DNA of 64,000 nucleotides from an uncultured virus (IMG/VR IMGVR_UViG_3300032167_007731) (Duplodnaviria > Heunggongvirae > Uroviricota > Caudoviricetes), in IMG/VR virus record IMGVR_UViG_3300032167_007731. One strand, 5' to 3'. Within the stretch, counting starts at the first letter, position 1; every line of letters begins with the position of its first letter. The notes under the pieces are model-generated. The model worked only from the letters and a program-made list of their open reading frames with translations, ran no database searches and had not been told where the DNA came from. Position numbers and translations under genes: made by a program. Positions 11,851 to 12,092 of this stretch are shown in pieces.

Positions 11851-11880
11851 AAGAAAAGAGAGTAAATATTTTACTCCCTT
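11851..11880 (-). terminator. Intrinsic terminator after the small membrane-peptide gene
   Basis: Minus: AAGGGAGUAAA-AUA-UUUACUCUCUU-UUCUU. Confidence 0.8.
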
Positions 11881-11909
11881 AACTATAGAAACAATATAAT
11901 TTTACTAAA

Positions 11910-12029
11910 TTAAATTATACAACTAAAAAGATACACTAAACAATTAAATATAACAGATACTACAACAAATCCTATAATACCACCTATTATCATACCTATT
12001 ATTGTACCCTTTGTTATCTCTTTTTCCAT
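11910..12029 (-). CDS. 39-aa single-TM peptide resembling the N-terminus of the pilin at 48115..48816 (not in ORF track)
   Basis: Translated by hand: MEKEITKGTIIGMIIGGIIGFVVVSVIFNCLVYLFSCII*; AAGGAGG RBS; has its own promoter and terminator. Confidence 0.8.
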   Translation of the reverse strand: MEKEITKGTIIGMIIGGIIGFVVVSVIFNCLVYLFSCII

Positions 12030-12062
12030 TATGTATAATCCTCCTTAAATAAATTATATCTT

Positions 12063-12092
12063 ATTATAACAGAGAATTATATCTTTTGTCAA
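12063..12092 (-). promoter_or_regulatory. Consensus sigmaA promoter (extended -10)
   Basis: Minus: TTGACA-18 nt-TATAAT with TGn, directly upstream of the 39-aa ORF. Confidence 0.85.

Follow-up and report, generated by a model that had tools for sequence, protein, structure and literature searches.

In Caulobacter, the 17-residue transmembrane (TM) segment of the pilin PilA, known as CIP, can signal through PleC by itself and binds PleC TM1, and a synthetic CIP peptide cut pilus-phage susceptibility by 77 % (PMC7196804). Here, we compare with this and other described systems a 39-codon gene found in a 64,000-nucleotide (nt) stretch of DNA from an uncultured virus of the Caudoviricetes (IMG/VR record IMGVR_UViG_3300032167_007731). 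This whole stretch is referred to as the window, its numbering is used for all coordinates, and the gene and its signals (11851-12092, ‘the unit’) lie on the minus strand. The predicted peptide resembles the N-terminus of a 233-amino-acid (aa) pilin-like subunit, which is encoded in the same window by a Tad-like filament module. Like CIP, it would correspond to a headless N-terminal helix of a pilin-like protein, which in the case of CIP is enough to engage a membrane partner and to reduce pilus function; unlike the product of the gene described here, CIP is a part of the pilin itself, was tested as truncations and as a synthetic peptide, and has a sensor kinase as its partner (PMC7196804).

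A second system is PfsE (PA0721), the smallest protein of the filamentous phage Pf4, i.e. an inner-membrane protein of N-in orientation, which halts the extension of pili and has the platform protein PilC as its binding partner (PMC8764522). The peptide likewise would be a very small, single-helix membrane protein encoded by a mobile element, and both an N-in orientation and an action on a type IV filament machine are proposed for it here. In contrast to the peptide, PfsE binds PilC via an aromatic YAWGW cluster (PMC8764522) and does not resemble a pilin. Neither the peptide nor P0121, its only diverged homologue, contains a YAWGW-type aromatic cluster or any Trp. Thirdly, prophage-encoded FimU-like minor pilins enter the pilus and give anti-phage defence, and in this case as well, the product of a mobile element resembles a filament subunit; these minor pilins, however, are full-length and become incorporated with pilus function left intact, whereas the peptide corresponds to the membrane segment only (PMC12952977).

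With regard to gene organization, the unit resembles the morons of temperate phages, such as HK97 gene 15, i.e. single genes with their own promoter and terminator located between operons; morons also differ in G+C content from the surrounding genes (PMC3594210). As far as can be told from sequence alone, the unit is of moron architecture, and no syntenic relative that would show an insertion was found. Lastly, a small size and a hydrophobic helix following a short leader are shared with the Flp/Tad pilins, and a TadA-family ATPase and a CpaB-like SAF protein are among the components of the neighbouring machine. Flp/Tad pilins carry a G/XXXXEY-type motif. The peptide, unlike them, has neither this motif nor a polar C-terminal half, and it is encoded outside the module.

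Likeness of the peptide to the filament subunit

Over residues 1-12, peptide and subunit agree at 8 of 12 positions, while the next best among 1102 ATG-started 12-mers taken from all six frames reaches only 5/12. BLASTP of the peptide against the subunit gave an E value of 9e-5 as a single comparison (8/15 residues identical, 14/15 positive), and hhalign of two small alignments returned a probability of 92.5 % (E 4.8e-7, 26 columns). Both genes have a strong Shine-Dalgarno (SD) sequence, with the AGGAGG of the subunit gene at the same 10-nt spacing as that of the peptide gene. Since these two are the only window genes with a strong AGGAGG that begin with MEKEI, a generic start for high expression cannot explain the match. 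The original prediction, which had pointed out this resemblance from the letters of the sequence, is thus borne out, and the N-terminal likeness is statistically real and above chance.

The encoded peptide starts with MEKEITKG, followed by a single 31-residue hydrophobic stretch with glycines at positions 12, 16, 17 and 20 and cysteines at positions 30 and 37. Its grand average of hydropathy is 1.7, the hydrophobic stretch is continuous from residue 9 to residue 39, and all 19-residue segments from residue 5 onwards score at least 1.9. As had been claimed, there is no head domain, the ORF (open reading frame) ending at residue 39 within the hydrophobic stretch. In a class III signal peptide, a short N-terminal leader ending in Gly leads straight into a hydrophobic stretch of some 20 residues. 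The window peptide has MEKEITKG followed by TIIG; the leader is net neutral or acidic and not basic, and P0121 has Ser at the Gly position. A Glu at mature position +5 is a feature of type IV pilins. After a cut at G8, this position would be Met13 in the peptide and Ile13 in the subunit, so that neither has the Glu. A complex prediction for the peptide with subunit residues 1-60 scored 0.02 against a mark of 0.32; it was run without controls and counts neither way.

Conservation of the 39-codon gene

When 1.84 billion cluster representatives were searched exhaustively with HMMER, a single relative was retrieved, P0121 (E 2e-10), which is identical to the peptide at 26/39 positions (67 %) and has the same length of 39 aa, the same start and the same stop, the changes being conservative (I/V, M/F, L/I). 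P0121 retains all of MEKEITK (7/7), T9, the four glycines G12, G16, G17 and G20, both C30 and C37, and the C-terminal YLFSCI, with 19/32 residues (59 %) identical outside the heptad. The ORF is thus conserved as a gene of 39 codons. The MEKEIxxGT match to the subunit, the loss of which in homologues would have spoken against the original prediction, is kept at 7 of the 8 matched residues. The remaining one is G8, which would be the key residue for a peptidase cut and which is Gly in the window peptide and Ser in P0121.

Near-identical copies were sought by a word-indexed search, for which the query was an in-frame reference one codon longer (40 residues). In total, 25 public contigs call the ORF in three near-identical variants, i.e. 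the identical peptide (17 contigs, the longest of 403,948 bp), V32G (7 contigs) and V32E (1 contig). The region 11400-12500 is found in DNA runs from animal faeces or gut: 19 of the 24 rows listed contain at least half of its sampled words, and the 20 listed rows containing any of it stem from 15 studies. When four runs were compared over the unit, they differed only at 12054 in the 5' untranslated region (UTR), at 11935 (V32G) and at 11900 in the 3' UTR. Codon 32 (11934-11936) is the sole polymorphic position of the peptide in the near-identical lineage; it reads V, E or G, with E also found in P0121, and all changes are at the second codon position.

Among the small hydrophobic ORFs outside the annotated window genes, only this one has a strong SD sequence. 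The family libraries Pfam, PHROGs, NCBIfam and PADLOC gave no family for the peptide, with weak TM-type rows at most, e.g. SecE/Sec61-gamma with an E value of 0.004. DUF7186 was considered and rejected, as the best Atlas row for it (0.81) is under the usable range and Pfam does not see this family in the peptide. Altogether, the 39-codon ORF is very probably a real gene of a narrow lineage, which we predict to be transcribed and translated.

The subunit family

The subunit belongs to a family of at least 461 clusters. Of 120 listed relatives, 116 start with MEKEISSGT and 112 have the first 33 residues in common, at whole-protein identities down to 56 %, although these relatives were chosen by shared 5-residue words, a choice that favours conserved N-termini. 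Three independently found loci show synonymous differences in codons 2-12, e.g. two different codon pairs for Ser-Ser, which argues for selection on the protein at the N-terminus of the subunit, evidently a functional part. The middle of the protein is hypervariable and its C-terminus conserved. Such a pattern of N-terminal conservation, a hypervariable middle and synonymous changes is typical of exposed filament subunits under diversifying selection. The structural model consists of a 40-residue N-terminal helix (7-47) and a beta-rich head, with a mean pLDDT (predicted local distance difference test) of 68.5.

The Atlas cluster of the subunit has 392 members; where a taxon is recorded for them, it is viral in about half of the cases. 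By a pattern scan, a subunit of the MEKEISSG type was found in only 3 GTDB species genomes, and the subunit was not found in the phage or plasmid collections searched. Short proteins with the first 46 residues of the subunit were considered as possible headless copies (21 matches); the 19 sequences fetched were all truncated subunits, due to contig ends or frame breaks, and none was peptide-like. Of note, the short database subunits P0141-P0145, from contigs of 0.7-14 kb, break off at almost the same position, after GLGFGV or IGL, and continue with unrelated residues. Such breaks could stem from chimeric assembly at a conserved repeat, or they could mark a site of recombination where variable heads are swapped.

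The transcription unit and its promoters

The coordinates of the unit and of the filament module are compiled in Table 1. Every part that the original prediction had listed, i.e. TTGACA-18-TATAAT, AAGGAGG, the ORF and the terminator, is present, all of them on the minus strand.

Table 1. Position of the peptide gene, its signals and the filament module in the window
Feature	Position	Strand	Basis or remark
Upstream-operon terminator hairpin	12121..12147	minus	Read from sequence; TTTT at 12120-12117; upstream boundary of the unit
Sigma-70/SigA-type promoter TTGACA-18-TATAAT with TG extension before -10	12063..12092	minus	12/12 consensus match
SD sequence AAGGAGG	12040..12046	minus	10 nt 5' of ATG
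39-codon ORF	11910..12029 (reads 12029->11910)	minus	Encodes MEKEITKGTIIGMIIGGIIGFVVVSVIFNCLVYLFSCII
Intrinsic-terminator-like hairpin (11880-11856) and T-rich tail	11846..11880	minus	11 pairs; present in minimum-free-energy and centroid folds
Next perfect promoter, TTGACA-17-TATAAT with TG	11813..11841	minus	Downstream boundary, outside the unit
Four perfect extended -10 promoters	11813-11841, 12063-12092, 30392-30420, 41366-41394	minus	Exact pattern
Tad-like filament module	41413..57402	minus	Pfam and NCBIfam matches, N-termini
233-aa pilin-like subunit	48115..48816	minus	Starts MEKEISSGTMLGIVLIALAAVIG

On the upstream side, the preceding operon has its stop at 12171, which is followed by the hairpin and its T run. 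This hairpin folds with 11 pairs at -16.7 kcal/mol (z -3.14) and was missed by a consensus terminator scan; by the same kind of scan, the hairpin downstream of the ORF is the sole terminator-like site within 10500-13500. The next promoter then starts an operon encoding, in this order, a Zn-ribbon protein, a 717-aa kinase-phosphatase-RNA ligase (Pnkp type; Pfam matches) and NrdG. Since the unit has its own promoter, is preceded by a terminator and is followed by a second promoter that opens the next operon, it is, as had been claimed, monocistronic by sequence, with terminators on both sides. The predicted 5' leader is only about 27 nt long, judged from the end of the -10 box (12063), the ATG (12029) and a predicted transcription start. 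The G+C content is 0.219 for the unit and 0.242 for the ORF, compared with 0.281 and 0.298 for the flanks, a difference to be viewed against the shortness of the unit and the A+T-rich signals within it.

The exact pattern TTGACA-N17/18-TATAAT occurs four times in the window, where 0.20 occurrences are expected, and always on the gene strand; none of 100 shuffles reached four. All four promoters have TTGACAA...TGTTATAAT in common. Loose promoter-like sites, in contrast, are at background in this A+T-rich region (23 found vs 20.2 expected). The segment 11805-11847 draws extra short contigs from elsewhere in the sequencing runs compared, and therefore the promoter sequence is repeated within the element or its community.

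A possible membrane-resident mimic of the subunit

We tentatively put first the reading that the peptide is a membrane-resident mimic of the N-terminal segment of the subunit, which modulates filament assembly; on the sequence evidence, this is a possible rather than a probable explanation. In this reading, the first 15 or so residues of the peptide are homologous to the near-invariant N-terminal signal-anchor of the subunit and were most likely copied from it. The reading is favoured because the segment common to peptide and subunit is the very segment that evolution holds fixed in the subunit. In its favour is also the distribution of identities between the peptide and P0121, i.e. the fully kept heptad as opposed to the remaining 32 positions.

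According to this proposal, the independently transcribed gene would give rise to a 39-residue single-pass membrane micro-protein. Its eight polar residues (MEKEITKG) would face the cytoplasm, and the other 31 would form one long hydrophobic helix, in which G12, G16, G17 and G20 make up a glycine zipper and both cysteines are conserved. As the peptide is hydrophobic to its last residue, it would stay in the membrane and could not form a solvent-exposed fibre. The headless peptide would then sit in the membrane pool beside the full-length subunits and may compete for whatever recognizes their N-terminus, i.e. the processing or assembly platform, or a sensor of the pilin pool. Such competition would damp or block filament assembly, which on a mobile element, probably a huge phage, might serve regulation or exclusion. 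The examples of CIP, PfsE and the FimU-like minor pilins lend plausibility to a mechanism of this kind. It is tempting to speculate further that a huge phage of gut Bacillota with its own copy of the widespread Clostridial Tad-like machine expresses a headless subunit from a host-type promoter and thereby jams or tunes the filament, e.g. for superinfection exclusion or control of the host surface, but this fuller scenario is rather unlikely.

Several observations weigh against the mimic reading. With regard to the peptide itself, its gene is located 36 kb away from the filament module (about 36.8 kb from start to start of the peptide and subunit genes), the residue expected before a prepilin-peptidase cut is the one not kept in P0121, and beyond residue 15 or so the two helices diverge, with a glycine zipper in the peptide and an Ala/Leu-rich sequence in the subunit. 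The single RNA run found contains 4 % of the sampled words, and its contigs reach only 12365-12500, outside the unit; a region without cover is not thereby shown to be silent.

With regard to the subunit, a Foldseek search against the PDB gave no match at E<=0.001, and in a wide VIA-align comparison only the long helix was matched (Z around 5), with archaellins among many unrelated helices and no solved pilin fold. A prepilin peptidase (Peptidase_A24) was not detected among the 56 window proteins by Pfam at E<=0.001, the window covering part of the element. Because the acidic leader of the subunit is atypical for type IV pilins, we consider this protein only pilin-like.

Further arguments against the mimic reading come from the distribution of the peptide. 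It was not found in three subunit-bearing metagenome-assembled genomes (MAGs), nor in the one viral contig carrying the module, nor in 401 sampled genomes of one class. In the latter, only TM-type noise was obtained: the matches of the peptide alignment in 92/401 genomes at E<=0.1 all score 20.8 bits or less and lie mostly inside long ORFs, and they were rejected as TM-helix noise. Searched by tblastn, the phage and plasmid collections gave no match, although the low-complexity filter may mask the peptide. An exact 35-nt scan of IMG/VR returned 0 hits, and of 163 pattern matches of the peptide alignment in IMG/VR, 0 were confirmed. In JGI contigs, at least 597 pattern matches led to one confirmed locus (L005), which proved to be a false positive in the antisense frame of a radical-SAM gene.

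Headless copies of other subunits were not found either. At 19 other module loci, taken with about 8 kb around them, none of 5074 short ATG-started ORFs matches the N-terminus of the locus's own subunit at 7/12 or better, two of these loci having given no reference N-terminus with the pattern used. In two whole genomes searched with the first 40 residues of their own subunit, every match lies in an open frame of at least 143 aa. A hidden Markov model built from the N-termini of 17 subunits of other genomes misses even the window's own subunit and says nothing either way. As the filament ATPase has matches in 30 of 399 sampled genomes, in which the peptide was not found, the machine evidently works without the peptide. 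Judged by these searches, the headless copy is a lineage-specific addition and not a general component of the filament system. Hence, co-occurrence of the peptide with its pilin family, for which the original prediction had suggested to look, is not general.

Alternative explanations

The peptide could also be a small membrane protein unrelated to the filament, e.g. a subunit or regulator of another membrane protein, in which MEKEI..T..G stems from ancestry, i.e. a duplicated 5' end, or from insertion constraints on a short acidic N-tail. Its narrow distribution in comparison with the widespread module, the distance of 36 kb, the departure of its helix from that of the subunit after residue 15 or so and the lack of conservation of G8 all fit this explanation. 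Moreover, other N-terminal-TM proteins of the module have short acidic tails as well, e.g. MEREVSLT, and the motif may therefore mark a class of N-termini rather than one partner. On the other hand, MEKEITK is fully kept in P0121, of which only 59 % is identical outside this heptad; this suggests that the N-tail is the functional part, and it is also the part in common with the subunit, whose own N-terminus is under strong selection at the protein level. We regard this explanation as possible, if somewhat doubtful.

Another candidate is a toxic peptide acting on the membrane, of the type I toxin-like or the holin-like kind, the former of which had been named as an alternative in the original prediction. 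Here, the glycine-zipper helix would oligomerize and depolarize the membrane, mRNA folding, an antisense RNA that escaped detection, or both would keep production low, and the peptide would serve maintenance of the element or the timing of lysis. As in Gram-positive type I toxins (Fst, TxpA, BsrG and those of the C. difficile CD0956.2 type), which are usually shorter than 60 aa with one TM helix, are located on mobile elements and can have their ribosome-binding site hidden by mRNA folding (PMC6563280), the peptide is below 60 aa, has one predicted TM helix and is encoded on a probable mobile element. It has the G12/G16/G17/G20 glycine zipper, and its weak Pfam rows are only TM or amyloid-type glycine-zipper segments (E 1.6-8.9). 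Folding is suggestive as well: in the predicted full-length mRNA, the SD sequence pairs with the 3' end of the ORF, with a probability of being unpaired of 0.07-0.23 for 5/7 bases and a whole-transcript z of -3.36, and the natural variants at 12054 and 11900 lie in the terminal helix that masks the SD sequence, where they retain pairing as G-U. Two promoter-like sites (10/12) are found antisense within the ORF.

However, conserved features of type I toxins, namely a hydrophobic N-terminus with a charged, often Lys-rich C-terminus and a long 5' UTR, are both missing: the layout of the peptide is the reverse, with a hydrophobic C-terminus (..NCLVYLFSCII) and its charges N-terminal, and the predicted 5' UTR of about 27 nt differs from the long ones described (PMC6563280). 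There is no charged residue after K7 in the peptide, and the same is true of P0121 save for E32. Nothing sequesters the SD sequence before the 3' end is made, and co-transcriptional translation would therefore be free. No antisense terminator was found and, as mentioned above, promoter-like sites occur at the background rate, and no antisense RNA is detectable by sequence; nor did the peptide gene give an Rfam match even at E<=1, a PADLOC match or a match to a Pfam toxin family. In addition, a perfect constitutive-type promoter together with a perfect SD sequence would be odd for a silent toxin. While the size and the TM helix fit, we consider such a toxin unlikely.

The ORF might instead be non-functional, either because it is what is left of a duplicated and now decaying 5' end of the subunit gene or because it arose by chance between two operons. 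This would agree with the RNA run that gives no cover of the unit, with the tiny family of four distinct sequences and with the sole within-lineage coding polymorphism (V32G/E), which is non-synonymous. It is quite improbable in view of the perfect signals at every level bracketed by terminators, the strong SD sequence, unique among small hydrophobic ORFs outside the annotated window genes, and the conservation in P0121, which at 67 % identity still has the same length, start and stop, substitutions of a conservative kind and unchanged Cys and Gly positions (G8 excepted, as noted).

Finally, an Flp-sized structural subunit polymerized into the filament, which had also been brought up and which would fit the short leader ending in Gly, the hydrophobic helix that follows and a size near that of Flp pilins, is highly unlikely, since the mature part is hydrophobic to the last residue without a polar C-terminal half facing the solvent, G8 is not conserved and no such peptide was found at the other modules examined.

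The filament module and the surrounding element

The window has a G+C content of about 29 % and 56 ORFs, every one of them on the minus strand and 31 of them without a Pfam match. The filament module encodes an M23 peptidase, a SAF/CpaB-like protein (with CpaB weak), a MinD-like protein, a TadA-family ATPase of 706 aa (51073-53193), a membrane protein of 691 aa (48998-51073), the subunit and an SLH protein, along with six small proteins that have a TM helix at the N-terminus. The best NCBIfam match of the ATPase is to the TadA family TIGR03819 (E 1e-9). One 185-kb IMG/VR contig (CheckV estimate 85 %) has a 45 % identical ATPase in the same gene order together with a distant subunit of 187 aa. 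The matches in 30 of 399 sampled genomes mentioned above were obtained with an alignment of these two ATPases and are full-length, one of them being located on a 2.97-Mb contig; two further sampled genomes had candidates without a score.

The same order was found at 19 genome loci with a recognizable ATPase-platform pair, which have runs of subunit-like proteins starting MENASKALIIAG or MDGNLSKALWIG. The widespread module thus consists of a SAF/CpaB-like protein, a protein of about 220 aa, a MinD-like protein, an ATPase of 620-706 aa with an N-terminal TM helix, a membrane protein of about 680 aa and three to seven subunit-like proteins, and the subunit-like proteins of related modules belong to no Pfam family. 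The window is most likely part of a very large mobile element, likely a huge phage, which would carry a variant of its own of the filament machine encoded on the chromosomes of many Clostridia. The region 9300-14200 gave only distant gene-level matches when compared with phages and plasmids, and neither IMG/VR nor the three MAGs yielded the Pnkp-type ligase or a 121-aa neighbour protein.

Some further observations were made in the course of these comparisons. In the viral contig G404 (locus L019, 14607-14906), the platform-like and the subunit genes are separated by two single-TM ORFs (46 and 47 aa), both of which have good ribosome-binding sites. The 47-aa ORF has EKEIST near its N-terminus; its BLASTP E value against the peptide is 2.9 and the peptide profile does not match it, making it a lead only. 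In five small genomes of 1.1-1.7 Mb (G402, G092, G122, G308 and G334), the ATPase match contains exactly one in-frame TGA, which may be read as a residue.

Within the window, a protein of more than 2150 aa with four glycine-rich domains of the ALK/LTK type (E 1e-111) is encoded directly upstream of the filament module (57531-63986, minus strand), and three SLH-domain proteins are scattered over the window. A 49-aa ORF (37080-37229, minus strand), which has a good AGGAGG and follows closely on the NrdD gene (37377-39671), contains RRITGY, a stretch resembling a glycyl-radical motif; it may be a separately encoded glycyl-radical piece or a spare part. NrdG is encoded 28 kb away at 8551-9048. Two adjacent paralogous small proteins of 98 and 90 aa with the motifs MAKG... 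and ..PRF..V[FY]KM.KE.. and without family matches are encoded at 13554-14112 (minus strand), upstream of an N6/N4 DNA methylase.

Implications

Small membrane proteins are routinely missed in annotation and seldom come with a functional lead, which in this case is a statistically real likeness to that part of a filament subunit in which conservation is strongest. The finding also draws attention to the filament module as such, with its subunits outside Pfam families and an ATPase with matches in 30 of 399 sampled genomes. Full-text searches of an open-access library gave no description of a natural gene that stands by itself and encodes just the membrane segment of a filament subunit. If a headless subunit does act on the filament in the way outlined above, CIP, the synthetic pilin-helix peptide, would for the first time have a natural counterpart encoded by a gene, and such a stand-alone gene would add to the known theme of mobile-element control of type IV-like filaments. 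Control by a membrane helix has so far been demonstrated, according to the accounts cited, only with truncations and synthetic peptides (PMC7196804) and, by another route, with PfsE (PMC8764522). Provided that the mimic reading is true, expression of a subunit's membrane helix alone would give mobile elements control over type IV-like filaments.

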